From positions 25,429 through 89,428 of the forward strand of contig DIWH01000070.1 of NCBI GenBank assembly GCA_002423485.1: 64,000 nt of DNA, in the 5' to 3' direction. Each line of letters opens with the position of its first letter. The first letter of the stretch is position 1. Source of the DNA: Candidatus Xenobium occultum (GTDB lineage Bacteria > Vulcanimicrobiota > Xenobia > Xenobiales > Xenobiaceae). The position numbers and the translations under genes were made by a program. A model generated the notes under the pieces. That model made no database searches. It saw nothing but the letters and a program-made list of their open reading frames with translations, and was not told the DNA's origin. Below are positions 13,612-40,170 of this stretch, in pieces.

Positions 13612-13628
13612 CCGAAACTCACGCTAGA
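13612..13628. repeat. right terminal inverted repeat of the IS
   Basis: CCGAAACTCACGCTAGA. Its CTA is the minus-strand stop codon of gene 13624-14511. Confidence 0.7.
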
Positions 13629-14511
13629 CGGGCCGGATGGTGATCAGGTCCCCTTCCTTGATGCCCATCTTCTTGATCATCGCCGGGGCCAGGCCGGCAT
13701 AGCCACCCATCTTGCGCGCGGCCTGGCACTTGTACTCGTACAGATCGCCGTCGGAGGTTTCCAGCTCGACGTTGAAGGTGGTCTTGGCATCCAGGCCCCA
13801 CTCGCGTACGATGTACTCGTCCACCTTCACGATGTCTCCGGCTCGGAAGAAGGTGCCATCCTGCCGCGCGATGAGTTGCTTGATCTTCTCAAGCTCCTCC
13901 TCCTTCTGACGGCGGCGGTTCTCGATCTCCGAAGCCTTCTCGGCGTAGACGTTGAGGGTGGCGCCGTTCTTGTGGACATAGTCCAGAAGTTCGCTCACGG
14001 CGTCGGTGCCACAGAGAACCTGACCATACTCGCGGCTGAAGCGGTCGGTGACCAGCTCCCCCCGGTTCATCAGGAGGAAGTGGGTCCCCTCCCGGCTGGC
14101 CATCTTGATGATCCCACTGTACTCCCCGGATTCGAGGTTGGTCAGGACCTTTTTGAGTTCACGACGCTTGACCTCATAGTCCAGATACAAGGGCTGAAAG
14201 GCAAAGAGCCCACCCAAGACGTTGACGATGGGACCCGAAGCCACGTAGGTGGAGACCGCCAGATCGCGATTCTTGATCCGGTTCAGAAGGCGGGGCAGCA
14301 GGTGGACCGAGGCGCTTCCGCTGGCTGGATCGACCTCCATGGCCCGGACCAGGTTCCCCTCGGAGTAGAAGACAAGCCCCGAGGAATCCTGGAGGTCCAG
14401 CTTCACGTAACCCGTGAAGGCATCCTCCACCAGGTTGGTGAGCATCGTGTTGATATCCGAGTACGGGAGCGTCTCGTCCTCGATCAGGATGTTGCCTTTG
14501 GGGACCTGCAA
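13624..14511 (-). CDS. hypothetical protein with DUF4388-like N-terminal repeats and a C-terminal AbrB/SpoVT-like swapped-hairpin motif
   Basis: TTG start with an AGGAGG SD 9 nt upstream. The N-terminal GNILIEDETLPYSDINTMLTNLVEDAFTGYVKLDL resembles the DUF4388 pattern. The C-terminal MIKKMGIKEGDLITIRPV resembles the AbrB/MazE LGIxEGDxVxI motif. Its stop codon lies inside the IS terminal repeat. Confidence 0.5.
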   Translation of the reverse strand: MQVPKGNILIEDETLPYSDINTMLTNLVEDAFTGYVKLDLQDSSGLVFYSEGNLVRAMEVDPASGSASVHLLPRLLNRIKNRDLAVSTYVASGPIVNVLGGLFAFQPLYLDYEVKRRELKKVLTNLESGEYSGIIKMASREGTHFLLMNRGELVTDRFSREYGQVLCGTDAVSELLDYVHKNGATLNVYAEKASEIENRRRQKEEELEKIKQLIARQDGTFFRAGDIVKVDEYIVREWGLDAKTTFNVELETSDGDLYEYKCQAARKMGGYAGLAPAMIKKMGIKEGDLITIRPV

Positions 14512-14541: not shown

Positions 14542-15576
14542 CTACTCTTCTTCAGTTTGAGGGGGGGGAGGCTTGGGCCGCCCCTCCTCACGTTTGAGGT
14601 CGAGGGAGATGGTGCGTGGGCGCCCGGTCTCCGACTCTGCGGGCCCCGGTGAGGTTGGAACCGCCACGGGGGGCGAAGAGGGCGGGCTCGGGCCCAACTG
14701 AATCCGGGAAGGCGGAGCCGGAGGCCCGGAGGGGAGCGCGGTTGGAGTCTCGGAAGCCACCGGAGGCTGGGACTCGGCTGAGGCTTTGGTCAACAGGGAC
14801 TTCCAGGGGTCCTCGTCCACCTCAGACTTGGGCGCCCCCGTGGCCTCCGCCGGAGCCGTCTGCCCCAGGAGCTTCTTCCAGGGGTCCTCCTCGGGAGCCT
14901 TCAGCGACACAGGAGACGGAGGTGCTGGCGGCTCATCCTCTGCCTGCACCTTGCTCAACAAAGCCGCCCAGTCCCCGCCAGACGACGGAGCCGTCACCGG
15001 CGAGGGGACCTCGAGGCGGCCCTCGGACGGGACCGACAGAACCGAACCGGTCTCCTCCGAGCCGATCTGGGCCAGACGCTGGAACGGGCTGAGCTCCTCG
15101 ACGTCATCCGGACGAACGGGCGCGACCGGCTCCTCGGAGCGGGGGGGAGGGGTCGAACCGGCAGGCCGGGTCATGGAGACCTCCTCCAAGGAGCCCGGGA
15201 CCTTCTGCTCGGCGGGTTCCTTCTCAGGTGCGGCGGTCTTCCTGAGCAGGGCTTTGAAGGGGTCTTCGTCCTCCAAGGAGGCCGGAGCCTCAGGCCCACC
15301 TGCGGGAGGTTCCTCCGTGGCCGGTGTCAGCAAGGGAGGGCCTGCCGCAGACCTGCGGGCCAGCACTTCCCAGACGACCAGTGCGACCAGCAGAGCGGCA
15401 AGCACCCAGAAAGCTCCCAGCAGGGTGCCGGTGTGCGCCCCCAGGCCCCCTTCCGGCTCTTGGGCCAGACCAGTCCCCGACAAAGCCAGGAACGCAAGAA
15501 GCAAGGTTCCCCCTCCCAGAGCGCGCGGCCTGACCGAGGGGCCTGCCCAGACATCCACGTGAGACTCGCTGTTCAC
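14542..15576 (-). CDS. single-pass membrane protein with a proline-rich tail and three EDP[FW]KxLL repeats
   Basis: Start taken at the GTG 8 nt after the TPR gene stop; an alternative GTG lies at 15558. There is a signal-anchor (GGTLLLAFLALSGTGLAQ) and a transmembrane helix (LLGAFWVLAALLVALVVWEV). A ~300-aa P/E/A/S-rich region contains DEDPFKALLRK, EEDPWKKLLGQ and DEDPWKSLLTK. The rest of the 568-aa track ORF overlaps the TPR gene. Confidence 0.55.
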   Translation of the reverse strand: MNSESHVDVWAGPSVRPRALGGGTLLLAFLALSGTGLAQEPEGGLGAHTGTLLGAFWVLAALLVALVVWEVLARRSAAGPPLLTPATEEPPAGGPEAPASLEDEDPFKALLRKTAAPEKEPAEQKVPGSLEEVSMTRPAGSTPPPRSEEPVAPVRPDDVEELSPFQRLAQIGSEETGSVLSVPSEGRLEVPSPVTAPSSGGDWAALLSKVQAEDEPPAPPSPVSLKAPEEDPWKKLLGQTAPAEATGAPKSEVDEDPWKSLLTKASAESQPPVASETPTALPSGPPAPPSRIQLGPSPPSSPPVAVPTSPGPAESETGRPRTISLDLKREEGRPKPPPPQTEEE

Positions 15577-15583
15577 GACTCTT

Positions 15584-18500
15584 CTAGACCTCTCTGCCCC
15601 AGTTGTCAGCAGGTTCCCCATACTCTCCGAGGTTCCCGCCATCCGAATCGGACTGGAGGCGCTCGAAGAGGACCTCGATGCGCTCCGAGACATCGCGGAA
15701 GCGGATGTCCACCGCGTAACACTCCTGATAGGCCTGGAGCGCCTCGTTGAAGCGCCCCTCCTCCTCCAGGACCTGGCCGAGGTTGTAGCGCAGGTCCAGC
15801 AGATCGTCGTCCATGAACCCGGGCTGGTCCAGAGCCTTGAGGAACTGACGGATGGCCAGATCCCGGTAGCCCTTTTCCTTGAAGGCCATTGCCAGGTGGT
15901 TGACCGCCAGCAGCATCTTGCCTGGGTCCCGAGAGGCCCGATAGAACTCCTGGATGGCTTCCTCCAGGAAGCCCATCTGCCGATAGAACTCACCCATCTT
16001 GATCTGGGATCCAGCATCCTCGGGCGAATAACCGACGGCCTGCCGATACTCGCTGACGATCCGACCCACCAGGCCTTTAGCGAAGATCTGACGGGCCACG
16101 CCGGCCGCCTCTTCCAGTCGCTCCTGCCGGGCGTAGATGATGGCCACCCGCGAGAGCGCCCCGGCACAACCGGGTTCCCTCCGCAGGACCTCGTCGTAGT
16201 AGGGACGAGCCTCCTCAAAATGCTCGGCATTGAAGAGCAGGTCCCCAATCTGCTCCAGGACCCGGGGTTCCTCGCCCGAACGACGGCCGATTTCCTCCAG
16301 GACCGGATGTGCCGCCTCCACGCCGCGATAGGCCAGGACCAGTTCGGCCAGGCGGAACAGCAGACCCAGGCCGTGCTCGACCCGCTGATGGTTCAAGGCC
16401 AGGTCGGCGGCGCGACGAGAATAGGCGATGGCCTGCTCGTGCTCGCCCAGCTCCAGGTATCGGGTGGAGATGGCTTCGACCAGCTCCAGCGCGCGGTCCC
16501 ACTCCTCCATCCTCTCCATGATCCCGGCCAGACGGTCTTTGACGATCAAGGAGATGCCCTTGCGCCCCTGGTCCAGGAAGGACTCTTCCAGGCGCTCGAT
16601 GCGAGAGATGCCCTCGGGCACGTTCTTGTGCCGGAAGAATCCGTCGATCAGCTTGACGAAGAGCGGATCGGTCCGTTCCTTGCGTCCTCGGACCAGATAC
16701 TGCTCCAAAGTGTGCAGATACTGCTCCTGGGCTTCCTTCCAGTCCTCCGCCTCCACCAGCTCGTCGGCCACGCGCTCGCGATACTCCAGGGCGGTCTCCC
16801 ACTGCTGGTTGTCTTCAAAGGTCCGCGAGAGGGTCCAGAAAACCTGGATCACGTGCTCATGGTCGCCCCGGCCCTTGTAGGTCGAGGCCAGCTCCTCCAT
16901 CAGCTTCTGGCCCTCTTCCAGGAAGCCGGTCTTCAGGAACATCTCACCCAGGCGCTGGCGAAGCTCCAGGTTCAGAGGCTGCAAGTTGACAATTTCGCGC
17001 ACGCACAGGCGGGCTTCGTCGATCTCGCCCCGATCCAGGTGAATGCCGAGCAACATCCGATAATGTTCGGTGGCCTCGTCGAACCGGAGGTTCCTGGTCA
17101 GCAACTGAATCAACTGACGCCGGTGGGGGATGTCCTTGGGCTCGAGCTCGAGAATCCGATGGAGGACCCGCTGGGCCACCTCAGGAAGATTCTGCAGCAG
17201 GTAGACCTTGGCCAGTTGCGAGAACTGCTCGAGGGCCTGGGCGGTCTGACCATGTTCGGCCCAGATGTGGCCCAGACGGTAACGGGCATTCAGGTTTTCC
17301 GGGTCGATCTCCAGCAGACGGCTGTAGATATCCGCAGCCGACGTGGCATTCCCCTCGCTATGGAAACGGCCGGCCAGGACCAGCATGCCCTCTCGGGCGC
17401 GCTCCAGCTTGCCCTGGCAAGCCACCTCGTGGGAGAGCCGCAGCCGGATCTCGACGTCCGCGGGATGGTAGGCCAGCAGCTCGCGGTAGAGACGCTCCGC
17501 CTCCTGATGGTTTCCCGTGGCGGAAACAGACTCCGCCATCTGGTAGACCTCCTGGCGCGCCTGAGCCAGGTCTCCCGACATCAGGTAGTTGTGGACGATC
17601 CCATCCAGGTACTGCTGCTTTTCGTCCATGTCGTCGGGAAGGTGCAGGACCATCTCCCGCAGACGGTCCATCTGCCCGGTAGCCTCAAACTTCTGCAGGA
17701 GCAGGCGCAAGAAGGACCGCTTCTCGGGATCACCGGGGTCCAGGGCATGGATGTCGCGCTCGGCGTCCTCCAGGCGGTTGGCGTTGAGGTAGGCCTGAAT
17801 GATTCGGCGCCGATAGCGGGGACGGATTTCGTCCTCCAACGAGAGACGGCCAACCTCCTCGGCGGCCCGATCGATGTCTCCGCTTTGCAGATAGGCCTCG
17901 ATCAACTGGCCCATGAACGAGTTTCGAGCCGGGTCCGCCTCGGGCAGACGCTCGATCTCACGAATTGCCTCGGAGAGACGGTTTGCCGTCAGCAGGCCGG
18001 AAATCTGCCGAGCCAGGAAATCCGGACGCGACTCGTCGCCCTCGGGAAGTCGGGCCAGCTCAGCGGCCGCTTCTTCCAGTCGACCGGTATCCTGATAGGA
18101 GCCGATCAGGCGCCTCTGAAAGGAGAGTCGGAGGGGGTCCTCGGCGGGAAGCCGGTTGATCAACTCCGCCGCCGTCTCGAGGTTCCCCGAGTTGAGGTAC
18201 ATCTCCATCAGGCGGGTGACCAGCCGGTTGCGCTCCTTGTCCGAGCGGGGCACCAGGGGCATGGCCGCGTCGGCCTTCTCCAGATCATTGGCATCCAGGT
18301 AGCGTTTGATCAGGTCCTTGCGGAACCCGACCTTGCGCTCGTCGTCGTCGAGCAGGCGGTCCAGGTGGCCCTCCACCTCCTCCAGGTGGCCGTCCGCCAG
18401 TTCCTTCTCGATCAGGCGACAGAGGAGGTTCCCCCGCTCGAAATCCTCTTCGGGCAGGGCCTGGATCTCTTGAAGAGCCTCCTCCAGTCGGCCGGACTCC

Positions 18501-20005
18501 AGGCAATACTTGACCAGACGCTTGCGCACATCCAGCCGTCCAGGCTCCTGGGCCAGCACCGTGCGATACGTCTCGACCGCCTCATCCCAACGATCCAACG
18601 CGGAGTATTCCTCTGCCAGGTAGACCCGGGCCAGCAAGTCGTCCGGACGCTCCCCCAGCAAGCGCAACAACTCGCGAACGGCACCGTCGTGGTCCCCCTG
18701 TCCCCGCAGGGTCAGGCCCACCTGATACTGCAGGTCGGAGGCCTCGGGGAAAAGTTCGACCAGCCGATGCTGAAAGTCCATCGCGGCGCTCTCGTCCCCG
18801 GCGTCCTGATACAGCCGCACCACCTGCTGGAACTCGGTCAGGGCCTCCGAGTTCATGTCCTTCTTCCGGTAGACCTCCCCCATCAGCTTGCGAGCTTCGA
18901 TGTTCCCGGGGTCCAGTTCCAGGAGCTTGCGGGCAACCGGCAGTGCCTCTTCGATCATGCCCCGTTCCAGATGCGACCGGGCCAGAGCCAACTGCTGTTC
19001 GCCGGCCTCTGCGGTCATGCCACGGCGCAAGAGATTCTCGACCAGGCGCAGCCGAACCGAGGTGTTCGACGGGTCCCGGGCCAGGATGTTGCGGTAGATG
19101 TCGATGACCTGGTTGCGGGCCTCCTCGTTCTGCGGGTCGCAATCCAGCAGCTTCTCATAGAAGCCGATCACCTTGTCGAGCAGGCCCTCTTCCTGATAAA
19201 TCCCGGCGAGGGTACGATAGGTCTCGACCGCCTGCTCGGTTCGCCCTTCCGAGGCGTAGATCTCGGCGAGCTTGACCAGGATGTCCTTGTTGCGGGACTC
19301 GTATTCCAAGATGCGCTCGTAGGTCCGGATGGCATCCACCATCTGCTTGCGCTGCATGTAGAGCTCGCCCGCGTTGCGGAACCAGACCACCGTCGTCTGG
19401 GGTTGCCGTCCGGCACGGATGAACACCTCGCCCAGCATCTCGTAGGCCTGGGCGGCCTCATTGGGAGCCAGGCGGACGACCTCCTGGAACTCGCCGATGG
19501 CCTCCTTGTCCTTGCTCTGAGCCATGAGGGCCCGCCCCAAGGCCATGTGGGTGTCCCATCGACCGGGGTCGATGTCCAGGCTGGACCGGAGCCAGCCTAC
19601 GGATTCGTCGTGGTCGCCTTTGTCCAGATAGAAGCGGCCGATCCGAGAAAAAATCTCGGGCTTGACCTGCGCCACCCGATTCTGGATTTCAGAAGCCTCT
19701 TCGCCGCCGAAGCCCTTCTTGCGCACGCTCTGCTCAAGGTTGACGATGATCTTGTAGCGTTCGATCGCCTGGTCGACCTCGCCTTGAGCCGCAAAGAGCT
19801 CGGCCAGGGCCATGCACTGGCTGATGACCTCGCCGTAGTCCCCCCGACGGGTGGCCGCCTCCAGGATGTGGTCTCGAAGCTGAACATCCTCCGGAGCCAG
19901 CTCCAGGGCCTGGCCATAGGCCCCCATGGCCTGATCCCAACGGCCTTGGGCGGCCAACTGGTCCCCTTGCTGGATCAGCGTGTCGATCTTCTTGCGGTCT
20001 GCCAT
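15584..20005 (-). CDS. giant cytoplasmic tetratricopeptide-repeat protein (1473 aa)
   Basis: Continuous TPR-like 34-aa repeats throughout, with no signal peptide or transmembrane segment. The C-terminal ~150 aa are homologous to the C-terminus of the adjacent 1695-aa protein (…RYNLGQVLEEEGRFNEALQAYQECYAVDIRFRDV… versus …RYNLAMLLYQNHRIQEALTELKDILAVDVAYRDV…). Confidence 0.85.
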   Translation of the reverse strand: MADRKKIDTLIQQGDQLAAQGRWDQAMGAYGQALELAPEDVQLRDHILEAATRRGDYGEVISQCMALAELFAAQGEVDQAIERYKIIVNLEQSVRKKGFGGEEASEIQNRVAQVKPEIFSRIGRFYLDKGDHDESVGWLRSSLDIDPGRWDTHMALGRALMAQSKDKEAIGEFQEVVRLAPNEAAQAYEMLGEVFIRAGRQPQTTVVWFRNAGELYMQRKQMVDAIRTYERILEYESRNKDILVKLAEIYASEGRTEQAVETYRTLAGIYQEEGLLDKVIGFYEKLLDCDPQNEEARNQVIDIYRNILARDPSNTSVRLRLVENLLRRGMTAEAGEQQLALARSHLERGMIEEALPVARKLLELDPGNIEARKLMGEVYRKKDMNSEALTEFQQVVRLYQDAGDESAAMDFQHRLVELFPEASDLQYQVGLTLRGQGDHDGAVRELLRLLGERPDDLLARVYLAEEYSALDRWDEAVETYRTVLAQEPGRLDVRKRLVKYCLESGRLEEALQEIQALPEEDFERGNLLCRLIEKELADGHLEEVEGHLDRLLDDDERKVGFRKDLIKRYLDANDLEKADAAMPLVPRSDKERNRLVTRLMEMYLNSGNLETAAELINRLPAEDPLRLSFQRRLIGSYQDTGRLEEAAAELARLPEGDESRPDFLARQISGLLTANRLSEAIREIERLPEADPARNSFMGQLIEAYLQSGDIDRAAEEVGRLSLEDEIRPRYRRRIIQAYLNANRLEDAERDIHALDPGDPEKRSFLRLLLQKFEATGQMDRLREMVLHLPDDMDEKQQYLDGIVHNYLMSGDLAQARQEVYQMAESVSATGNHQEAERLYRELLAYHPADVEIRLRLSHEVACQGKLERAREGMLVLAGRFHSEGNATSAADIYSRLLEIDPENLNARYRLGHIWAEHGQTAQALEQFSQLAKVYLLQNLPEVAQRVLHRILELEPKDIPHRRQLIQLLTRNLRFDEATEHYRMLLGIHLDRGEIDEARLCVREIVNLQPLNLELRQRLGEMFLKTGFLEEGQKLMEELASTYKGRGDHEHVIQVFWTLSRTFEDNQQWETALEYRERVADELVEAEDWKEAQEQYLHTLEQYLVRGRKERTDPLFVKLIDGFFRHKNVPEGISRIERLEESFLDQGRKGISLIVKDRLAGIMERMEEWDRALELVEAISTRYLELGEHEQAIAYSRRAADLALNHQRVEHGLGLLFRLAELVLAYRGVEAAHPVLEEIGRRSGEEPRVLEQIGDLLFNAEHFEEARPYYDEVLRREPGCAGALSRVAIIYARQERLEEAAGVARQIFAKGLVGRIVSEYRQAVGYSPEDAGSQIKMGEFYRQMGFLEEAIQEFYRASRDPGKMLLAVNHLAMAFKEKGYRDLAIRQFLKALDQPGFMDDDLLDLRYNLGQVLEEEGRFNEALQAYQECYAVDIRFRDVSERIEVLFERLQSDSDGGNLGEYGEPADNWGREV

Positions 20006-20049: not shown

Positions 20050-23000
20050 TCAGACTCCCCGTCGGGGTGGCATACGGGGGGTCTTCCCGCTGCCTCCCCC
20101 AGCGATCTCCTCCTGGAGCAGCCTCACCCACTCGTCGACGTCGCGGTAGGCGACATCGACCGCCAGGATGTCCTTGAGCTCAGTCAGGGCCTCCTGGATG
20201 CGATGGTTCTGGTACAGGAGCATCGCCAGGTTGTAACGCAACTCAAGGTAGTCCTGCTCGGCGTGTCCTTTGGTCTCCAGGCCCCGGCGGAACTGGCGGA
20301 CGGCCAGGTCCAGACCGAAGCGGGGGTTCCGGGCGAAGGCCAGCCCCAACATGTTGTAGGAACGCAATTCGTGATCCCGGTCGGAACGAGTCTTCTGGAA
20401 CTGTTCGACGGCATCCTCGACGCGATTGAGGAAGTAGCAGACCTCGCCGTAGACGAATCGGGTTGCCCAGTCCGTCGGTTCAGCCGCGATCCGCTCCTTG
20501 TACTCGCTGAGGATCCGCTCCCGAGAGGCCTCCCCCGCCTCGGGCTGAACCTCGACCAGTCGATTGAGGACCTCCGCGGCTTCCCGAGCCTTTCTCTGTT
20601 CCATGAGGAGCCGGGCGTAGCGGTCCATGGCCTCGGAATGCCCGGGATTCAGCTCGAAGACCCTTCGGAACTCGTTCAACGCCCCGGGCAGGCTGCCCAA
20701 TTTTTCGTCATACAGACGAGCCAGGCGATAGTGCAGATCGTCCCGGGTCGGGGCAACCTCCAGCGCCCGCTGCAAGACCTGGACGGCTTCACGCTCACGC
20801 CCTGAAGCTTCGTGAAGGTCGGCCAGCACCAGCAGTTGCTCGAGCACATCCTCGTGCCGCCCGGCCATCTCGTAGAACTCCAACAGGCGTCGCCGCAGGT
20901 CCAGGGACCTGGGATCGGCTTGCGTGAGGCGCCGATACAGATCGATGGCAGGGCCCGTGTCCTTGGTCTCGAGATAGAGTTCGGTCAAAGGCTGGGAATC
21001 CCTCAACGCGGCAGCCAGATCGCCACTGCGCAGATGGCAGTCCACCAAGCGACGACGAGCCTCGTGATGAGTCGGATCCTTCTCCAACACCTGCTCGAAG
21101 AGAGCGGCCGCCTCCGAGATGGCCCCCTGATCCTCGTGACGGCAACCCAACTCGAAGCGGCCCTCCAGGACCCGGTCCGAGCGTTCCAGTCTCTCGTAGA
21201 GCTCGATCAAGGCGTGGCGGTCAGCCAGGTTGTCCGGGTCCAGGGCCACCAGCTTCTCGGTGACCCCCGTGGCCTCGTTCCACATCTGGGTTTCCCGGTA
21301 TCTGTGGGCCAAAGCGCGATAATTGACCAACGCCTGGGCCACCTCGCCCTGGGTCTCATAGACCTGGGCCAGGCGTTCCTGGAAGGTCGGGTCCTCGGAG
21401 AGGGTCATCAACTGCTGGAATGCCCCGATCGCCTCCTCCACGGTCCCCCGTGCCAGGGCGATCTCGGCAAGCTGGCGGAGGTGATGGACAGCCAGGTTCT
21501 TCTGCCCCAACACCGAGAAGCGGTCGACCAGGCGACGGCGTGCCAGGAAGTGGTTGGGATCCAGGCTCAATATCGATTGAAGGATGTCGACGGCGTCGGC
21601 CTCACGATCCTTCCGGACATGAAGCTCGGCCAGTTCCAGGAAGGTCGAAGCGGCCTCCTCATACTCTGCATTCCACAGGTAGGCATCTGCCAGCCGATGC
21701 CTCAAGGCGATGGACTCCGGCTTGCGCATCAGGATCTGACGGTACTGCATCACCGCATCGTCCAACAGACCATAGCGAAGATGAATGTCAGCCAGATCGG
21801 TCCGGAGCATCAGGTTGTCCGGCGACTCCTCGACCGCGCGGCGATAGGCGCTGATCGCTGTGGTGACATCTGCTCCCCCGAGCTTCTCCCGGATCTTTCG
21901 GGCCTCCTGAATCTGCTCGTGCGGGAACTCCGACTCCACGGCCAGCGAACACAGGGATTCCGGAACAAGTGCCTCCTCGGCCGCAGGCTCAACCTCCTCC
22001 GGCTCCGAGGCGGAGGTCGGCGCCGTGGCCTCGGCTGGTTCCTCGACGGGCTCGGCAGCCGCCTCCTTCTCAGACACTGCCGGTTGAGCCTGGTCCGGGA
22101 CGCCCTCCGGAACGGATGGGGCCTGCTCCCCTGGGCCACCTACGGTGGCCTCGACCTCAGAACTGGCAGTCTGCGGTGGGGTCCCTGGCTCAGGTGCCGC
22201 CGCCTGTTCGGTGACTGGCTCCGGATGGTCTTCTGGAGCCGGGCCGGCCAGGAGCTCCTCCTGGCCGGACTCGCCGGACAGCGTTTCGTCCAAAGCCGGA
22301 CCCGCGAACAGGTCCTCCTCGGAAGCTGGGCCTGCGAAGAGTTCATCCTCGAGCGATCCGGCAGGCAAAGGCTCCTGGGAGGCCGGTCCCGCGAAGAGAT
22401 CCTCCTCCGAGGCCTCCGGACCCGCGAAGAGGTCCGCATCCTCAGCGACGGCCAGAGGTTCGACCTCTGAAGCCGGCGCCTCCAGCAAGGGGTCAGAGGG
22501 CGACGGGGCCGGCTCGGAGGGCTCGGCCGGAGCCGCAGACCCTGCGGTTGGCGCCTCGACCAGCGCCGTCGCCTGTTCCTCTTCCGGCTGAACGGCCACC
22601 GGGGCGGGGGAGTCCGGGATGGGCGTCTCTTCGGCAACCGGCGAGGCCATCGGCTTCTCAACCGCCGGACGTCCCCCCTTCGTGGCTGCGGTCCTCGCCT
22701 GGCCGGGCCGCCCCCCATGAACGACTGGCCCGGTGGGCTCTGCAACCTGCGGAGCGGAAATCTTCTCGGGTGCCGGAGTCACCTGGGGCGCAGGAATCCT
22801 CTCTGGCGCAGGCGTCACGGCAGGCGGCGCCGCCTGGGACGCCCCCAGCAAAGCCTTTCGTCCACGCGCCACCGGAGGCGGTGTACCTGGGCGGACCTTC
22901 GCCGGGGTCGGGGGTTTGGGTGGGGCCTCCGCTGCAGAAGGCCGGGTCGACTGGTCTCGCTCCAAAGCCTCCTTCTCGGCCCGCATCCGGGCGATCCGGT

Positions 23001-25137
23001 CGGCCAGGGTCCCGGCGGCCGAAGGCGGACGAGCGCTGGCCGCGCTGACCGACTCCTGGGAAGGCTCCGGTGGCTCCTCCGCCCGGGCGCTGGGTCGCCG
23101 GGATTTCTGACCAGCCGCCGAGCGCATTCCTTGAAGCAGCGACCCGCCAGAGAAGTTCAGACCTCCTTTGGCACCTGCAAACCGGGAAGCGATGGGGCCA
23201 GACTTCTTCTCGGCGGGCGCCTCGGGGACCCGAGCTTCGACCTTCTTCTGGCGGACCTGACGGACCTTCTCGCCGTCCACCTCCAGCAGGGGGGTCCAGG
23301 GAAGAACCTCGGGGTCCGGGGCCTGCACGACCTGCTCGCGGATCTGCTCCAATCGGTCCGGTTGGGCCAGGAAAAGCACTGGCGGAGGCACCTGGAGTTC
23401 TCCAGGCTCTGCCTGGACCACCACGACCGGGCGAACAACGGTGACACGCGGCGGCGCGGAAACCGCGGCGGCCTGCTCCGACAGCGGCTCGGCCTCCAAA
23501 GAGTCTGAATCAAGTCGTGGAACCGAGGACTCGGGCCCCTCCTCTGGGGTGGGAACGGGCTCCAAGGACTGGGGCTCAATTTCGGGGGGCGGTTCCTCGA
23601 GCGGGGGCGGCTCTTCAGCCGGAAACTCCACGACAGGGTCCGCCACTGGCGGCGCCTCCTGTGCGATTTCGGGAACGGCGGCCGCCGTCTCCTCGAGGAC
23701 CTCCTCTGGAAGCTCCTCGGCCACCTCTTCCGCGGGCTGACGCCGGCGCAGCGTCCTCTTGCCGCCCAGAACAGGCTTCTCGGCTCCAGGCAACCCCAGC
23801 CCCGGCTTCATCAGCCCTGGCCTGGGGCCCGCCCCGCCTCGACCAAGAACCGGCTTCTCCGTCCCAGCAGCGACCAGCCCGGCCTTGCCGCCGACCTTGC
23901 GCGTCAACCCCCGAGAACCGGCCCCCTCCTTGCGGACCAGGCCCTTCCGGACGCGTTCGTCGGTCTCCGGTGCGGCATCCGGCGATTCCAGCCCCTTGCG
24001 ACGCTTCTTCCCGACCTGGATGGACTCTCCAGAGCCAGACCTGGCGGTCTGCCCCGAGCGTTTGGAACGGGCCGGTTCGGGGGCCGGCGCCGGTTGCGCT
24101 GCAACGGCAAAGTCCCCGGGATCCGGCGTGAGGGGCGCACCGAGATTGGTCAACTCGCGGCAAGCCGTGGGATTGGTGGGGTCCAGCGCCAGAACGCGCT
24201 GGTAGAGCTTGACGGCACGGGGATGGTCTTCCAACTGCTGCCAGGCGTGTGCCGCGGCCAGATAGTGCTTGACGGCTTCGGCCGAAATTCCTTGAGCCTG
24301 GTAGAGTTCCCCAAGACGCTCCTTGGCGGAGTTCTCATGAGGATTGATGGTCAGAATCTTGTTGAAGGCGAGGATGGCATCGCGGAACTGACCCTTCTTC
24401 TGGCAGACATCGCCCAAGGCCAGCAAGGCCTCCTCATGATTGAGGTCGTGCCGAAGGATCGCACGGAATTCCTGTTCCGCCTCGTTGAAGCGGCCCAAGG
24501 TGACGAAGAGCTTGCCAAGAGTGAAGAAGACGCCAGGATCGTCAGGGACGATCACCTTCATCCGCCGATAGGCCTCCGCAGCCTTCTCGACCTGCCCCTT
24601 CTGCTGGAAGGCCGACGCGACCCGGCGGTACTGTGCTGCGCCTTCCTCGATGTGGCCGTGGCTCACGAACATCTCGGCGAGTTCAAGCCCGATCTCGAGG
24701 TTGTCTGGATCGGATTCCTGAGCACTCTTCAGCAGCGAAATGGACTGGTCGCCCTGGCCCAGTTCGATGTAAAGGCGAGCCAATTCACGCGAGCGGCGGA
24801 CGACCTCGGCATGATCCCCCTTCTTGCGAAGAATCTGGATGACCCGCATCCGCGCGGCGTCAGACTCCGGGTCCAGCCGCTGGATCCAGCCGGCGACCTC
24901 AATCGCGGGGTCCAGCTCCGACCGCGCCTCAAGGATGTCCATCAGACGGAAGTAGGTCTGAACGACCGACTTGATCATCCCTCGGACCGCGTAAGCATGC
25001 GCTCGCTTCTCGCATGCCTTCGCGTTCTCAGGATCAAGTTCCAGGACCCTCTTGAGCTTCTCCAGGGCGGCATCCCAGTCGCGCTCCTCGATCAGCGACT
25101 CGGCCTCCCGCATCAAATCCCGGACGTCATCGGCCAC
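20050..25137 (-). CDS. giant cytoplasmic tetratricopeptide-repeat protein (1695 aa) with a ~650-aa disordered Pro/Glu/Ala-rich insert
   Basis: TPR arrays occupy roughly residues 1-330 and 1010-1695. The central low-complexity region contains five [ED]-[ED]-L-F-A-G-P motifs and EKPVLG repeats. It is paralogous to 15584-20005. Confidence 0.85.
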   Translation of the reverse strand: MADDVRDLMREAESLIEERDWDAALEKLKRVLELDPENAKACEKRAHAYAVRGMIKSVVQTYFRLMDILEARSELDPAIEVAGWIQRLDPESDAARMRVIQILRKKGDHAEVVRRSRELARLYIELGQGDQSISLLKSAQESDPDNLEIGLELAEMFVSHGHIEEGAAQYRRVASAFQQKGQVEKAAEAYRRMKVIVPDDPGVFFTLGKLFVTLGRFNEAEQEFRAILRHDLNHEEALLALGDVCQKKGQFRDAILAFNKILTINPHENSAKERLGELYQAQGISAEAVKHYLAAAHAWQQLEDHPRAVKLYQRVLALDPTNPTACRELTNLGAPLTPDPGDFAVAAQPAPAPEPARSKRSGQTARSGSGESIQVGKKRRKGLESPDAAPETDERVRKGLVRKEGAGSRGLTRKVGGKAGLVAAGTEKPVLGRGGAGPRPGLMKPGLGLPGAEKPVLGGKRTLRRRQPAEEVAEELPEEVLEETAAAVPEIAQEAPPVADPVVEFPAEEPPPLEEPPPEIEPQSLEPVPTPEEGPESSVPRLDSDSLEAEPLSEQAAAVSAPPRVTVVRPVVVVQAEPGELQVPPPVLFLAQPDRLEQIREQVVQAPDPEVLPWTPLLEVDGEKVRQVRQKKVEARVPEAPAEKKSGPIASRFAGAKGGLNFSGGSLLQGMRSAAGQKSRRPSARAEEPPEPSQESVSAASARPPSAAGTLADRIARMRAEKEALERDQSTRPSAAEAPPKPPTPAKVRPGTPPPVARGRKALLGASQAAPPAVTPAPERIPAPQVTPAPEKISAPQVAEPTGPVVHGGRPGQARTAATKGGRPAVEKPMASPVAEETPIPDSPAPVAVQPEEEQATALVEAPTAGSAAPAEPSEPAPSPSDPLLEAPASEVEPLAVAEDADLFAGPEASEEDLFAGPASQEPLPAGSLEDELFAGPASEEDLFAGPALDETLSGESGQEELLAGPAPEDHPEPVTEQAAAPEPGTPPQTASSEVEATVGGPGEQAPSVPEGVPDQAQPAVSEKEAAAEPVEEPAEATAPTSASEPEEVEPAAEEALVPESLCSLAVESEFPHEQIQEARKIREKLGGADVTTAISAYRRAVEESPDNLMLRTDLADIHLRYGLLDDAVMQYRQILMRKPESIALRHRLADAYLWNAEYEEAASTFLELAELHVRKDREADAVDILQSILSLDPNHFLARRRLVDRFSVLGQKNLAVHHLRQLAEIALARGTVEEAIGAFQQLMTLSEDPTFQERLAQVYETQGEVAQALVNYRALAHRYRETQMWNEATGVTEKLVALDPDNLADRHALIELYERLERSDRVLEGRFELGCRHEDQGAISEAAALFEQVLEKDPTHHEARRRLVDCHLRSGDLAAALRDSQPLTELYLETKDTGPAIDLYRRLTQADPRSLDLRRRLLEFYEMAGRHEDVLEQLLVLADLHEASGREREAVQVLQRALEVAPTRDDLHYRLARLYDEKLGSLPGALNEFRRVFELNPGHSEAMDRYARLLMEQRKAREAAEVLNRLVEVQPEAGEASRERILSEYKERIAAEPTDWATRFVYGEVCYFLNRVEDAVEQFQKTRSDRDHELRSYNMLGLAFARNPRFGLDLAVRQFRRGLETKGHAEQDYLELRYNLAMLLYQNHRIQEALTELKDILAVDVAYRDVDEWVRLLQEEIAGGGSGKTPRMPPRRGV

Positions 25138-25540: not shown

Positions 25541-27583
25541 CTACTTCATGATGTGCGGGGTCATCATCAAGATCACTTCGTTGCGATCCGCCGAATCGGT
25601 CACCGAACGGAACAATGGACCGAAAATCGGGAGGTCGCCCAGAAGCGGGATCTTGCTGACACTGTGACGCTGGCTCTCCGAAATGAGGCCGCCCAGCACG
25701 ATCGTGTCGCCATCCTTGACGCGCATCGTCGAAGTGACGGTGCGGACCGTCGTCCGTGGGTACTGGTTGTTCACGAGGTCCACCAGGTTGGAGACCTCTG
25801 GCTTGACCTCGGCCACGATGTAGCCGTCCGCCTTCACCTGGGGCTTGACCTCCAGGGTCACACCGATGTTGACGTAGGTGACCTGGAACTGACCGGCGCG
25901 CGGGTCAAAGAACACGATGGGGAACTTGTCGCCCACGTGAATCCTCGCCTCGCCACCAGACTGGGTGGCAACCCTGGGTGAAGCCAGGATCTTGGCTTCG
26001 CCGTTGGTGATCAAGAAGGCCAGGGTCGTCTGGACCACAAAGGGCGTGCGCCCGAAAGGTCCGATGGCCAGGCCGGCCATTTCGGCCAGGTCGATCTGGT
26101 CGTTGGTGATCGAGCCGGCCGCTGGAACCAGGGCCGGAACGATCTCGCCAAACGTGGTCTGGAAGGAACCCGGTGCGTTGGGAGCGCCCCAAGTGACGCC
26201 GAGGTTCTTTCCACCGCTCTCTGTCAGGTCGACGACCTTGACATCCAGCATGACCTGATCCTGGGGCCGGTCGATGGTCGCGAGCAGTTCCTGCAACGCT
26301 TCGATCGAGGCATCCGAGCCCTCGACGATCAGCAGGTTGAGCCGCTCGTCCGCGTTGTATTCCAGGTCCGGAACCAAGGTCTTGGCCAGGGCCTGAACGT
26401 CACGCAGTTCGCCGTATTTGACGGGGATGAACTCACGCCGGGCCGCGGGCGGGGGTTCAGGAACCTGATCCAGGCCGGGAATGGAGGCCTTGATCTGGCG
26501 CAGTTCGTCCCGAGTCGCCTTGGCAAAGAAGCCGTTCAGCGTCGGGTGCTGGGTGAACTCGACGTCGGGGTACTGAAGCTTCAGGAACTCCGTCACCTTG
26601 GCGGCCGGAGCCACTTCCAGCAAGAATTCCTGAGAAATCAGGTCGCGACGCGAGGCGGCCGACTTGGTCCGCGGGGTGAGGATGTCATCGGCAACCTGGG
26701 CCAACTTCTCGGGACTGGCCACCACGATGGTCCCGTCCACGATCTTGTAGCTGTAGTCGTTCTCCTGCATCTTCAGGATCAACGCCAGGGCGCCTTCAGG
26801 CTGGACCTTGTTCAGGGTGACGGTGACCGTCCCCATCACGTTGGGAGCAACGAAGACGTTCCGGCCCATCTCCTGGGCCAGAGCCTTGATGACAAAGACC
26901 AGGTCTGCATTGACGAAATCGATGGAGACGGTCTTGGGAGCCGGCGCAGGCCGGGGACGAGGCGCCTGGGCCCTCAGGGCCGAGGCCGATGAAGTCGGCG
27001 TCCGGGTCACGGACGCGGGGGTCGCAGGACGAGACTGCGCCTTGGCCTGGGGTGCAGGCTTCGGAGCGGGAGCGGTCTGAGCGACCGGCTTGTGAACGGG
27101 AACCGGACGAGTGGCTTCCACACTGGGAACTGCCGGGGCTTTCGTGACTTTCGCCTCGGCAATCTGAGATGTGGAAACGGCCACCGTCAAGCCACGCCGC
27201 TCGGGCGCCGGGCTGACCTGAAGTTGCGGCTGCGAGATCACGTCCAGGTAGACGCGAACCGTGTCCGGCGTGTACTGGGCCAAGCGAACCTTCTCCACCA
27301 GGCCCCGGTTGACATCCGTCTGGGCACGGGCTCCGCTTCCGAGAACCGCCGGCCACACGTCGATGACTACCATCTGCCGCGGCTCGGCGAGCCGCTTGGA
27401 ACGGAAGCTCACCGGGGCCGTGGCCTGGACGTCCACCTTCAGCGTTCCAGTGCCGTCGGTAATCTTGACTCCACTCACGGTCGCGCTGGCAGCCTGGGCC
27501 GTCGTGGTCGCAGGCAGCAACAGTCCTACGGCCAGAAGGCACGCGAGCAGAAGCTTCCAGCTTCTAGGCTTCGACAAGAGCAT
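25541..27583 (-). CDS. pilQ: type IV pilus secretin
   Basis: Signal peptide, N-terminal AMIN-like region, an Ala/Pro-rich linker, secretin-N and C-terminal secretin domains (IPLLGDLPIFGPLFRS...MMTPHI). Confidence 0.9.
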   Translation of the reverse strand: MLLSKPRSWKLLLACLLAVGLLLPATTTAQAASATVSGVKITDGTGTLKVDVQATAPVSFRSKRLAEPRQMVVIDVWPAVLGSGARAQTDVNRGLVEKVRLAQYTPDTVRVYLDVISQPQLQVSPAPERRGLTVAVSTSQIAEAKVTKAPAVPSVEATRPVPVHKPVAQTAPAPKPAPQAKAQSRPATPASVTRTPTSSASALRAQAPRPRPAPAPKTVSIDFVNADLVFVIKALAQEMGRNVFVAPNVMGTVTVTLNKVQPEGALALILKMQENDYSYKIVDGTIVVASPEKLAQVADDILTPRTKSAASRRDLISQEFLLEVAPAAKVTEFLKLQYPDVEFTQHPTLNGFFAKATRDELRQIKASIPGLDQVPEPPPAARREFIPVKYGELRDVQALAKTLVPDLEYNADERLNLLIVEGSDASIEALQELLATIDRPQDQVMLDVKVVDLTESGGKNLGVTWGAPNAPGSFQTTFGEIVPALVPAAGSITNDQIDLAEMAGLAIGPFGRTPFVVQTTLAFLITNGEAKILASPRVATQSGGEARIHVGDKFPIVFFDPRAGQFQVTYVNIGVTLEVKPQVKADGYIVAEVKPEVSNLVDLVNNQYPRTTVRTVTSTMRVKDGDTIVLGGLISESQRHSVSKIPLLGDLPIFGPLFRSVTDSADRNEVILMMTPHIMK

Positions 27584-37225: not shown

Positions 37226-38317
37226 CTACTTCCGCCCCTGACCCTCGATCATGCGCCGAAGATCCTCTGGATGCATGGTATGGTTCAAGGCATCCTCCAA
37301 GGTGATCTGCTTGTTGGTGTACAGATCCAGAAGCGACTGTTCCATGGTCTGCATCCCGTGCTTGGAGCCCGTCTGGATGGCGTTGTAGATCTGGTGGCTC
37401 TTGCCTTCACGGATCAAGTTGCGCACGGCAGACGTGGCGATCATCACCTCGATCGCGGGGACCCGACCCACGCCGGAGGAATGCGGAATCAACTGCTGCG
37501 AGAAGACCGCCTCGAGCACCGCCGCCAACTGAATGCGAATCTGCTGCTGCTGATGGGGCGGGAAGACGTCGACGATGCGGTCGACGGTCTGGGAGGCATC
37601 CGAGGTGTGCAGGGTCGAGAAGACCAGATGACCCGTCTCGGCCGCCGTCAGCGTGCCCGAGATGGTCTCCAGGTCCCGCATCTCACCGACCAGGATGACG
37701 TCGGGGTCCTCGCGGAGAGCCGAACGCAAAGCGTGCAGCCATCCTTGGGTGTCCTGACCCAACTCCCGCTGGTTGACCATCGACTTCTTGTGAGGATGGA
37801 TATACTCGATGGGGTCCTCAATCGTGAGGATGTGGTAGGTCTTCTCGGAGTTGATCAGGTCGAGCATGCAGGCCAGGGAGGTCGACTTACCCTGACCCGT
37901 CGCCCCGGTGACGAGGATCAAGCCATGCGGCCGATACACCATCTCCTCGATGACCTGGGGAAGGTTGAGCTCCTGGCGCGTGGGAATGGAACTGGGGATG
38001 GCTCGCAACGTTGCCCCGACCACTCCACGCTGACGGAAGACGTTTACCCGGAAGCGGCCGAAACCACGCACGCCGTGCGAACAGTCCAACTCCCAGGTCT
38101 TCTCGAACCTCTCCTTCTGCTTGTCGTTGAGGATGCTGTAGATCAGGCGCTTGGTGTCGTCCGGACCAAGCCGGGGATACTCGGTGGGCGTCAACCTCCC
38201 GCTGATCCGCAAGATCGGCGACAGACCCACCGCCAGGTGCAGGTCTGATGCGCCGCGTTCGACCGTGCTCTTGAGCAGGTCGTCCATGGTGTAGCGAAGC
38301 GGTTGAGGCAGAGCCAT
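37226..38317 (-). CDS. pilT: twitching-motility retraction ATPase
   Basis: Walker A GATGQGKST, plus the Asp box, His box and AIRNLIRE motif. The start is at ATG MALPQP with a GGAGG SD 8 nt upstream. Confidence 0.9.
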   Translation of the reverse strand: MALPQPLRYTMDDLLKSTVERGASDLHLAVGLSPILRISGRLTPTEYPRLGPDDTKRLIYSILNDKQKERFEKTWELDCSHGVRGFGRFRVNVFRQRGVVGATLRAIPSSIPTRQELNLPQVIEEMVYRPHGLILVTGATGQGKSTSLACMLDLINSEKTYHILTIEDPIEYIHPHKKSMVNQRELGQDTQGWLHALRSALREDPDVILVGEMRDLETISGTLTAAETGHLVFSTLHTSDASQTVDRIVDVFPPHQQQQIRIQLAAVLEAVFSQQLIPHSSGVGRVPAIEVMIATSAVRNLIREGKSHQIYNAIQTGSKHGMQTMEQSLLDLYTNKQITLEDALNHTMHPEDLRRMIEGQGRK

Positions 38318-38427
38318 CTTATATCCTCCAAACAGCGTGGAACCCAACCACCCAGCCCTCCGCTTGAGGCGGACGACCGAACGGCTGGGTCAATCGGAAT
38401 CGGTCCGCAAAGCGGACTTGAGAAGAA

Positions 38428-40170
38428 CTACCACTCGCCGGTACTTTCGACGTAGACCACGCGGAGACATTCCTCCATGGAGGTGACTCCAGCCAGGACC
38501 TTGTTGATGCCATCCTCCTGCATGACGCGCATGCCATCCTCGGTCGCCGCCTGCTTGATCTCCGCCGTCGAACTCCGGTGGAGGACCAGGCCTCGAACCC
38601 GGTCGGTCATGGGCATGATTTCGTGAATGCCCGTCCTTCCGCGGTAACCCGTCATCTTGCAGTGGTCACAACCACGGCCACGATAGAAGCTCAATTCGGA
38701 ATCCGAATACATGGCCAGGCCGAAGCGCTTGACGGCCTCTGGAGTCGGAGAATACGATTCCTTGCAGTTCGGACAGATCGTGCGGGCCAGGCGCTGCCCC
38801 AGGACCCCGATGACCGACGAGGCCACCAGGAAGGGCTCCACCCCCATTTCGATCAGTCGCGAGACGGCGCCGGCGGCGTCGTTGGTGTGCAGGGTCGAGA
38901 GGACCAGGTGGCCCGTCAGGGCCGCCTCGACGGCGATGCGGGCGGTCTCCTGGTCGCGAATCTCACCGACCATGATGATGTCGGGGTCCTGCCGCAGAAA
39001 CGAGCGCAGGGCCGAGGCAAACGTCAGATTGGCCTTGGTGTTCACCTGGACCTGGTTGACCCCCGGCAACTGGTATTCCACGGGGTCCTCAATGGTCAGG
39101 ATGTTGGTGGTGCCGGTGTTGAGCTTGTTCAGACAGGAATAGAGGGTGGTGGACTTCCCCGATCCCGTCGGTCCCGTCACCAGGATCATTCCATAGGGCT
39201 TCTCAACGACATCCTCAAAGAGCCGCTGGTTCTCTTCCGAGAAGCCCAACTTGTTGAGGCCGAGCATGACCGAGCCCTTGTCCAGGATTCGCATGACGAC
39301 CTTCTCACCGTGGATGGTGGGAACCGTCGAGACGCGAAGGTCGAACTCGCGACCGTCGTGGCGCAAGTGGATCTTGCCATCCTGGGGGATCCGGCGTTCG
39401 GCGATGTCCATGGTGGCCATGATCTTGATTCGGCTGACCATGGGCGCCTGGATGTGCTTGGGGGGGCTCATCACGTCGTGGAGCACGCCGTCCACCCGAT
39501 AGCGGACGCGAACGGAGCGGGCTTCGGGCTCGATGTGGATGTCCGAGGCCTTGTCGTTGATGGCCTGGGAGATGATCAGGTTGACCACACGGACGATAGG
39601 CGCCTCATCCACGAGCTCCTTCAGCTTGTCCAGGGCGATCTCTTCCTCGATCTCGTCCTCGACCTCCATGGCGCCGAACTCGGTGGCCGAAATCTCCTTG
39701 ACCGTATCCTCCACCGCGACCATGTCGGTCACGCCGAAGAGGCGGGCGATGGCCTTGAGAATCTCCTCTTCGGTGGCGATGACCGGCTCGATGTCAAAAC
39801 CCGTGATCAGGCGAATGTCATCGATGGCCAGGACGTTCAGCGGGTCGACCATGGCCAGGGTCAGACGGTTGTCCTTCTGGGCCACGGGGATCACCTTGTA
39901 GCGCTGAGCCAGGTGCTCGGGAATCGACTTGGCCAGGTCGACGTCCAGGTCGATGCGGTCCAGGTCGACGAAGGCGACCCCCATCTGTTTGCCCATGGAC
40001 TCGACGATGTCCTTGTCGGACACGAACCCCATCGAAACCAGGGTCTTCTGAAGAGGTTCCCCCCGGCGCTCGGCGTCTGCCTTGGCCTTCTCCAGTTGGC
40101 GCTCGGTGATGAAGCCTTCCTCGACCAGCAACCGGCCAAGGTCTTCGTTGGACCGCGTAATCATCGACAA
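38428..40170 (-). CDS. pilB: type IV pilus extension ATPase
   Basis: N-terminal GSPII domains, Walker A GPTGSGKST, the tetracysteine CPNC...CDHC motif and the GspE signature. Confidence 0.9.
   Translation of the reverse strand: MSMITRSNEDLGRLLVEEGFITERQLEKAKADAERRGEPLQKTLVSMGFVSDKDIVESMGKQMGVAFVDLDRIDLDVDLAKSIPEHLAQRYKVIPVAQKDNRLTLAMVDPLNVLAIDDIRLITGFDIEPVIATEEEILKAIARLFGVTDMVAVEDTVKEISATEFGAMEVEDEIEEEIALDKLKELVDEAPIVRVVNLIISQAINDKASDIHIEPEARSVRVRYRVDGVLHDVMSPPKHIQAPMVSRIKIMATMDIAERRIPQDGKIHLRHDGREFDLRVSTVPTIHGEKVVMRILDKGSVMLGLNKLGFSEENQRLFEDVVEKPYGMILVTGPTGSGKSTTLYSCLNKLNTGTTNILTIEDPVEYQLPGVNQVQVNTKANLTFASALRSFLRQDPDIIMVGEIRDQETARIAVEAALTGHLVLSTLHTNDAAGAVSRLIEMGVEPFLVASSVIGVLGQRLARTICPNCKESYSPTPEAVKRFGLAMYSDSELSFYRGRGCDHCKMTGYRGRTGIHEIMPMTDRVRGLVLHRSSTAEIKQAATEDGMRVMQEDGINKVLAGVTSMEECLRVVYVESTGEW

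Follow-up and report, generated by a model that had tools for sequence, protein, structure and literature searches.

A candidate type IVa pilus scaffold in the Xenobia: a pilQ-linked TPR protein with a motif-bearing disordered linker

Introduction

To our knowledge, detailed accounts of how type IV pili are positioned and switched exist only for Myxococcus and a few Proteobacteria (FimV, SgmX/MglA). FimV combines, in one chain, a LysM domain in the periplasm, a transmembrane segment and a FimV C-terminal motif that resembles tetratricopeptide repeats (TPRs), and the pilotins PilF, PilW and Tgl are small (~250 amino acids) outer-membrane lipoproteins. Here, we describe TPR1, a TPR protein of 1695 amino acids that is encoded next to the pilus gene pilQ in Candidatus Xenobium occultum and that we consider a candidate scaffold of the type IVa pilus machine. 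Our analysis started from a window of 64,000 nucleotides (contig DIWH01000070.1 of assembly GCA_002423485.1, positions 25,429 to 89,428 of the forward strand), to which all nucleotide positions without a locus name refer, and from a preliminary description of the gene.

The described protein that appears to be the nearest functional analogue of TPR1 is SgmX from Myxococcus xanthus (MXAN_5766), on which polar PilB and pilus extension depend. This cytoplasmic TPR protein of 1060 amino acids activates pili through its N-terminal TPRs, contains a proline-rich region and binds FrzS and MglA-GTP through its C-terminal TPRs (PMC9811614, PMC7519303). Bd2492 is its homologue in Bdellovibrio (PMC7519303, PMC9811614, PMC11580455), and PATAN proteins co-occur with SgmX (PMC11580455). 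PodJ from Caulobacter is linked to pilus assembly and is reported to form condensates (PMC8980812). We found the proteins analyzed here described nowhere in a literature search that covered Xenobia/UBP9, Eremiobacterota pili, PATAN proteins with TPRs, and pilus scaffolds with TPRs and disorder. TPR1 looks like a thus far undescribed member of the pilus-associated scaffolds that combine TPRs with disorder.

Results

TPR1 and the type IV pilus cluster

The closest homologues of TPR1 come from Candidatus Xenobium and from other Eremiobacterota/Vulcanimicrobiota assemblies (class Xenobia). Upstream of the gene and on the same strand lies a complete type IVa pilus cluster, and the minus-strand order in the window reads pilB-pilT-pilC-pilin-(648-residue TPR protein)-pilD-pilin-pilM-N-O-P-Q-TPR1-TPR2-X-Y, where TPR2 is a paralogue of TPR1, and X and Y are two smaller genes (Table 1). 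This pilus context, the main clue to function, had escaped the preliminary description. The GC content at third codon positions (GC3) of TPR1, 0.77, is usual for genes of the window (65% GC). In the window, 403 bp separate pilQ from TPR1; a promoter and terminator scan of this gap found no terminator-like site and gave nothing either way.

A scan in which each species was represented by one genome, and in which aligned N-terminal TPR arrays served as the query, gave 47 loci, 38 of which are of the Xenobia type. These loci were surveyed by tblastn with the proteins of the window, and gene tables were compiled for three metagenome and genome loci. The order pilM..Q-TPR1-TPR2(-X)-Y was found in essentially every Xenobia locus with enough flanking sequence (among 38 loci of genome assemblies and 3 of metagenomes), with TPR2 adjoining TPR1 in the orthologous loci and with 218-454 bp between pilQ and TPR1 across the relatives compared. 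The linkage of TPR1 to pilus genes, TPR2, X and Y is tight and ancient. Conservation within the family is highest in the N-terminal array (45-65% identity versus 26-55% for the C-terminal array). We define the Xenobia pilQ-linked TPR1 family by an N-terminal array ending in RELTNLGAP, a basic block, a disordered linker, a C-terminal array with LELRYNLA...YRDV and a position between pilQ and TPR2; TPR1 shows all of these features.

Nine further loci from Bacteriovoracaceae had drawn our interest because of the Bdellovibrio SgmX homologue Bd2492. They were dropped, as they encode 243-residue TPR proteins in an unrelated operon, with 21-30% identity. Sumerlaeota-type TPR homologues of 2400-2950 residues were not counted as orthologues, because P0104, the single locus inspected, lies away from pil genes. 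Nine assemblies titled Burkholderiales, Bacillota, Chloroflexota, Selenomonadaceae or Riflebacteria (L007, L008, L012, L015, L022, L024, L026, L033 and L035) contain the Xenobia-specific locus and are probably mis-binned or mis-classified. Vulcanimicrobium alpinus, a cultured Eremiobacterota strain that moves by type IV pili (PMC9758169), is not among the 47 loci of the pattern scan.

TPR1 joins two TPR solenoids by a long disordered linker

In Pfam, TPR1 matched TPR-type families only, at both ends of the protein, with TPR_19, TPR_14, TPR_16 and TPR_2 at E values of 1e-47 to 1e-65 (among the matches listed, the best 25 of 27 families for Pfam and the best 25 of 31 for NCBIfam). We modeled TPR1 with AlphaFold2 (AF2) as two overlapping pieces, residues 1-980 and 880-1695, from a 44-sequence alignment. 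The 19 and 35 paired helices predicted for the two ends, with predicted local distance difference test (pLDDT) scores above 90, together with the Pfam matches place TPR1 in the TPR superfamily, in which tandem 34-residue helix-turn-helix repeats build a solenoid. A near-invariant ...RELTNLGAP closes the N-terminal array, and the last ~145 residues form a module common to TPR2 (...LELRYNLA...EAL...VD..YRDV). Foldseek returned TPR solenoids such as Ctr9, Ski3, IFT-A and OGT, which are generic matches with TM-scores below 0.2 against the PDB, and when the C-terminal array was searched by sequence against solved structures, the matches were limited to designed TPRs, OGT and PEX5, none of them specific.

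Between the arrays, the linker scores below 50 in pLDDT, save for short helices at residues 588-602, 622-635 and 711-729. It is composed of 16% proline, 16% alanine and 14% glutamate, and its charge alternates in blocks of approximately +12 (residues 360-466), -21 (467-559), ~0 (560-634), +14 (635-834) and -56 (835-1075). No signal peptide or transmembrane segment was found at the N-terminus, MADDVRDLMREAE; orthologues begin with MADD or MSDD at the TPR1 start position. TPR1 is a cytoplasmic protein whose two TPR solenoids are bridged by a long disordered region, the charge of which alternates in blocks. We rejected the possibility that two genes had been read as one, as the frame is continuous and, in dozens of assemblies, the two ends of the protein are conserved in one frame with several islands of the linker.

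The preliminary description had already recognized a 1695-residue protein with two TPR arrays and a disordered, Pro/Glu/Ala-rich middle, and the Pfam matches, the pLDDT values and the composition bear this out. Its estimate of ~650 residues for the disordered region falls short of the ~730 that we measured. It had also regarded the linker as an insert. A linker of ~230 to 1340 residues lies between the two TPR arrays in every orthologue, which indicates that it is ancestral and was not inserted.

Conserved elements of the linker

We compared TPR1 with its congeners as a set of five orthologues, which are 72-84% identical overall (regional values are mean pairwise identities). The TPR arrays are 93% identical. 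Within the linker, a basic repeat block, a conserved island, an amphipathic helix, a pair of 12-residue units and the acidic LFAGP array can be distinguished (Table 1). Both EKPVLG copies sit within the basic block, the conserved island is predicted to form two short helices, and the amphipathic helix recurs in P0007, P0008 and P0029, which are distant homologues.

The LFAGP array consists of six units of 10-11 residues (DLFAGP, DLFAGP, PLPAGS, ELFAGP, DLFAGP and ELLAGP), which at the DNA level are diverged tandem repeats with a period of 30-33 nucleotides and 79% matches. Exact LFAGP occurs four times (residues 903, 914, 933 and 943), three of the four fitting the strict pattern [ED][ED]LFAGP; PLPAGS and LLAGP are degenerate. 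The motif string quoted in the preliminary description is therefore present and its motif is indeed repeated, with a count lower than the five strict copies claimed. EKPVLG and TPAPE[RK]I, which it had listed as repeated, occur twice each.

Several observations bear on the question of whether these units are functional. The array is 62% identical among the five congeners versus 30% for each flank, arguing that the LFAGP units are under selection. Units 1, 2 and 4 and the last ELLxGP unit are kept in all five congeners, with the variants DIFAGP and DFFAGP. In the TPR1 linker, a loose acidic-hydrophobic-aromatic pattern occurs 7 times versus 0.4 expected from composition-preserving shuffles (z = 9.8), and enrichment over shuffles extends to distant orthologues. 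The preliminary description had taken the units for functional short motifs, a view that would fail if they were unconserved in orthologues or had arisen by a recent duplication in this genome only. Neither was found: a SEEDLFAGPA unit is the sole recent duplication, and it is common to the two closest sequences only. The LFAGP feature of the linker is real, conserved and non-random, and the comparison supports the view that its units behave as selected short linear motifs, unlike drift.

Linkers across the wider family

Two linker elements are conserved more deeply than the LFAGP array: the basic [RK]xGL/KPxLG block, which the preliminary description had not noted, and a L[AS]ERIARMRAE helix (LADRIARMRAEKEA), found in many lineages. 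The basic block lies just after the N-terminal array in the 44-sequence consensus and is the most widely conserved linker element, present even in the 1190-residue short-linker forms.

Other lineages contain 20-90 copies of related acidic-aromatic units, among them DDLFG, GLFD, DLFSQ, DFG, MDPFG and LVGGYDY. In 29 clustered proteins (P0030-P0058), DDLFG, GLFD and FDNLFD account for 21-45 matches versus ~5 expected, with z scores of 6-15. For the DLFG clade (29 proteins), the linker has a mean length of 953 residues and contains ~61 Phe with a median Phe-Phe spacing of 11 residues. Its consensus around Phe reads G-[DG]-D-L-F-[DG]-[DE]-x-P, with Leu at position -1 in 51% of cases, a 6.3-fold enrichment, and Asp at -2 in 33%, a 2.7-fold enrichment. 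Elsewhere we found DLFSQPA and GGLFD (L020 and L022), MDPFG and DPFS (P0060 and relatives), DDxLYG (P0007), QLVGGYDY (the gut-associated clade), 11 copies of LFAPPSG (P0097) and PAQDFGAS with up to 92 Phe (L010 and L014). L010 (10010-~16800) and L014 have the most extreme linkers; that of L010 spans ~1300 residues with 92 Phe, 27 Trp and 20 PAQDFGAS copies. In the sister species protein P0006 (L004:10001-15451), ~20 tandem 11-residue AAAEEEMLAGP units (residues ~910-1130) replace the 4-6 EEDLFAGP units, a rapid expansion in which the aromatic residue was lost.

Across orthologues, the acidic-hydrophobic type of the motif is kept, and the number of units, which the preliminary description had proposed to compare, is not constant (4 to ~90). 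Seen alongside these sequences, the LFAGP array is a short example of acidic hydrophobic/aromatic sticker arrays, a widespread class that turns over by tandem duplication and yet stays under selection.

TPR2, protein X, protein Y and neighboring genes

TPR2 is a distant paralogue that aligns with TPR1 collinearly from end to end, with 23% identity over ~360 residues at the N-terminus, 26% over the C-terminal ~600 residues (E value of 1e-27) and 33% over the last 144 residues (E value of 7e-26). It is TPR throughout, and no LFAGP, EKPVLG or TPAPE[RK]I motifs were found in it, in agreement with the preliminary description, which had reported a shared C-terminal part and no motif-bearing insert in the paralogue.

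Protein X contains a signal-like segment and a transmembrane helix, after which come the residues ARRS and a disordered tail bearing ~5 acidic [DN]P[FW]xxLL or WxxLL motifs (EDEDPFKALLRK, GDWAALLSKV, EEDPWKKLLGQ and DPWKSLLTKAS are examples) and a conserved R[TS]ISLD end. It has no Pfam or NCBIfam match. Its orthologues are encoded at L004:19938-20972, L002:18973-20526 and L001:20011-21549, and protein X is a second motif-array protein of the TPR1 module. For protein Y, all four orthologues matched PF14332, weakly but consistently (best E value of 1.5e-6); a profile search of solved structures gave no match.

Three relatives carry additional genes after the module: one of the Roadblock/LC7 (MglB-like) type, one for a response regulator with a single domain and one for a GAF/PAS histidine kinase (L001:22487-24754, L004:24197-25451 and the L002 downstream region). 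These genes do not follow gene Y in the window, where a DDE-transposase-like open reading frame (ORF) comes next that may be an insertion sequence that broke synteny.

Within the pilus cluster, the 157-residue pilin-like ORF carries a class III signal/N-methylation motif, GFTLIEMMVVIVIIGILLALLIP. The L002 counterpart of the 648-residue TPR protein (L002:760-2763) carries a Wzy_C (O-antigen ligase-like) domain, which hints that the 648-residue protein is a candidate pilin glycosylation enzyme. At L004:78-2855, a TPR segment and the prepilin peptidase are fused into one protein of 925 residues.

Table 1. Coordinates in the window of TPR1, its elements and the surrounding genes
Feature	Position	Strand	Description
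TPR1 (target)	20050..25137	-	1695 aa, GTG start, GC3 0.77
N-terminal TPR array	24136..25137	-	aa 1-334, 19 helices, AF2 pLDDT 95-98
Disordered linker	21943..24135	-	aa 335-1065, ~730 aa, AF2 pLDDT <50
Basic repeat block	23740..24012	-	aa 376-466, ~9 [RK]xGL / KPxLG units, 88% identity among congeners
Conserved island	23233..23460	-	aa 560-635, LQVPPPVLF...DRLEQIREQV...LPWTPLLEVDGEKVRQVRQKK, 75% identity among congeners
Amphipathic helix	22948..23010	-	aa 710-730, TLADRIARMRAEKEALERD, AF2 pLDDT ~80, 89.5% congener identity
Two 12-aa units TPAPE[RK]I[PS]APQV	22744..22821	-	period 36 nt, 76% matches
Acidic LFAGP array	22234..22452	-	aa 896-968
C-terminal TPR array	20053..21942	-	aa 1066-1695; 35 helices over aa ~1066-1680, AF2 pLDDT >90
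TPR2	15584..20005	-	1473-aa all-TPR paralogue, 44 bp downstream of TPR1
Protein X	14542..15576	-	344 aa, directly after TPR2
Protein Y	13624..14511	-	295 aa, PATAN (DUF4388/PatA_N)-like
572-aa ORF	11725-13443	-	weak DDE transposase match PF01609, E 2e-4, below cut-off; directly after gene Y
pilM..pilQ block	25541..31145	-	same strand as TPR1
pilQ secretin	25541-27583	-	immediately upstream of TPR1
Gene in pilP position	27968-28627	-	upstream of TPR1
pilO	28631-29281	-	upstream of TPR1
pilN	29290-29985	-	upstream of TPR1
pilM	30045-31145	-	upstream of TPR1
Remaining type IV pilus cluster	31521..40170	-	upstream of pilM
Second pilin-like gene	31521-31994	-	157-aa ORF between prepilin peptidase and pilM
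Prepilin peptidase (pilD)	32040-32891	-	
648-aa protein with C-terminal TPRs	32961-34907	-	between pilin and prepilin peptidase
Pilin	34960-35448	-	
pilC	35724-37016	-	
pilT	37226-38347	-	
pilB	38428-40170	-	
aa, amino acids; nt, nucleotides.

Comparison with described scaffolds

We compared TPR1 to other TPR proteins and disordered scaffolds. Like SgmX and Bd2492, it is large, cytoplasmic and without a signal peptide, and it has N- and C-terminal TPR blocks flanking a proline-rich non-TPR middle, so that the SgmX-type layout is present in full; a PATAN protein accompanies both SgmX and TPR1. TPR1 differs in its ~730-residue linker with motif arrays, in being paired with an all-TPR paralogue, in coming from another phylum and in having no MglA seen nearby. 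Against the SgmX family NF052243 (NCBIfam, cut-off of 1800 bits), TPR1 scored 50 and TPR2 129.4 bits, no better than the matches to PrsT or MamA.

FimV, HubP and TspA share with TPR1 the reading as pilus- or pole-linked scaffolds and a long acidic, repeat-bearing disordered region with TPR-like motifs, and they have a membrane anchor, which in the TPR1 module is supplied by protein X. Here, several genes encode the parts of the module, and its TPR arrays are of much greater size. TPR1 is not a FimV family member: no LysM or FimV family was found among the Pfam and NCBIfam matches listed, and it has no hydrophobic segment. PodJ likewise is a scaffold with TPRs and a disordered Pro/Ser/Glu-rich region, but, as a bitopic membrane protein, it has its TPRs in the periplasm and contains coiled coils, which are absent from TPR1 (compared by description only). 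The pilotins are TPR proteins of type IV pilus systems as well; TPR1 and TPR2 are 6-7 times larger, have no signal or lipobox, and fall outside these families in NCBIfam (PilW 88.7 bits versus a cut-off of 154, Tgl 67 versus 225). Analogies of the LF unit to the beta-clamp motif (QL[SD]LF), the SSB tail (DDDIPF) and the FtsZ C-terminal peptide were considered, found unsupported and are not claimed.

Discussion

Given the linkage to pil genes, the architecture with its disorder, the selection on linker elements and the precedent of SgmX, we put at about even the chance that TPR1 is a scaffold or hub on the cytoplasmic face of the type IVa pilus machine, with a linker for multivalent binding. 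By analogy, we infer a pilus function, a scaffold role and a multivalent mechanism as follows. The highly conserved N-terminal TPR array would make the core contact, and the C-terminal array and TPR2 would make regulatory or oligomerizing contacts. The ~730-residue linker would serve as a multivalent binding region composed of the basic block, two or three short helices and the acidic Leu-Phe sticker array (EEDLFAGP). Each LF unit would bind its partner weakly, and many units would concentrate partners, or TPR1 itself, at the machine; such linker contacts may recruit partners or drive self-association. The membrane tether of the complex may be protein X. Candidate receptors for the LF units are the TPR solenoids, protein X, protein Y and PilB/PilM.

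Several points weigh against this proposal. The function assigned to TPR1 rests on synteny and analogy, TPR1 and TPR2 are not SgmX orthologues (50 and 129 bits versus the cut-off of 1800), and neither the window nor the flanks of ~10 kb inspected in relatives showed an MglA-like GTPase. The short-linker homologues L003 and L023 do not adjoin pilQ. The closest sister species has ~20 EEEMLAGP units without the aromatic residue, and the Phe itself is therefore not essential; some lineages show other repeat types or no clear motif in the linker. In AF2 models, neither the LFAGP units nor the basic block docked onto either TPR array of the same chain.

This last result bears on the related idea that the acidic LF units are ligands of the TPR grooves of TPR1 and/or TPR2 and mediate homotypic or heterotypic assembly, possibly in a condensate. 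TPR domains commonly bind short acidic peptides, as in the recognition of Hsp70/Hsp90 EEVD by Hop and in PEX5. This known affinity, the presence of three long TPR solenoids and two acidic-aromatic disordered proteins (TPR1 and X) in one cluster, the conservation of the LFAGP motifs among congeners and a block-charged linker that could self-associate all favor such an assembly. Next to either array, however, the LFAGP units stay at pLDDT values of 36-48 with no sign of docking, which is a weak negative only, and the motif changes radically between lineages, whereas the N-terminal array remains 45-65% identical. We consider TPR-groove binding a tentative possibility that probably does not hold. 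We find it unlikely that the linker is an entropic spacer whose repeats reflect neutral replication slippage in low-complexity, GC-rich DNA, with no binding function. The units are tandem DNA repeats, their number differs between sister species (4-6 versus ~20), their sequence varies widely, linker length spans 230 to 1340 residues, and some lineages lack a clear motif, as slippage would allow. But among congeners the conservation of the array is double that of the flanking sequence, the acidic-hydrophobic-aromatic enrichment over composition-matched shuffles reaches z = 15, and the same chemistry recurs in distant clades with a defined Phe context (Leu at -1 enriched 6.3-fold, Asp at -2 enriched 2.7-fold).

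TPR1 and TPR2 could also be unrelated to pili, lying beside pilQ by chance or through shared transcription and acting in some other process instead, such as envelope biogenesis or signaling through the Roadblock, response regulator and kinase genes downstream. TPR proteins are functionally promiscuous, short-linker homologues are found outside pil clusters, the Sumerlaeota-type distant homologues are not near pil genes, and 218-454 bp lie between pilQ and TPR1. Yet the adjacency has been kept despite divergence to 45-65% identity in the N-terminal array and 26-55% in the C-terminal array, and a PATAN protein is co-linear with TPR1. The PATAN domain is tied to pilus motor control in cyanobacteria. 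We regard a role apart from pili as improbable.

A more far-reaching version of the pilus scaffold proposal, which we offer as a long shot, is that the linker is a bacterial counterpart of an FG-nucleoporin domain, with Phe-centered stickers in an acidic spacer. The GLFG units of FG-nucleoporins work with alpha-solenoid transport receptors, and GLFG domains are nearly uncharged. The likeness lies in the long disorder, in Phe-centered units (GLFG versus DLFG/GLFD) every ~10-20 residues and in helical solenoid partners. The bacterial linkers, in contrast, are strongly acidic, and TPR1 has only 4-6 units; we draw an analogy that implies no homology. It is no less speculative that the 4-6 stickers here and the ~60-90 in relatives, spaced by ~11 residues, would act in this manner. 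If true, an FG-like meshwork would gate or concentrate the PilB/PilT motors.

With this locus, an entire uncultured class in a diderm phylum on the Terrabacteria side gains a candidate scaffold module that is conserved and has no homology to those already known. Its parts are two TPR solenoids, a membrane-anchored disordered protein and a PATAN protein, and they yield concrete peptides and domains for binding tests. The linker family forms an unusually clear natural series of stickers and spacers, in which acidic residues, Leu/Met, Phe and a small residue are kept while copies range from 4 to ~90, and is well suited to studying the evolution and action of multivalent short motifs in bacteria.

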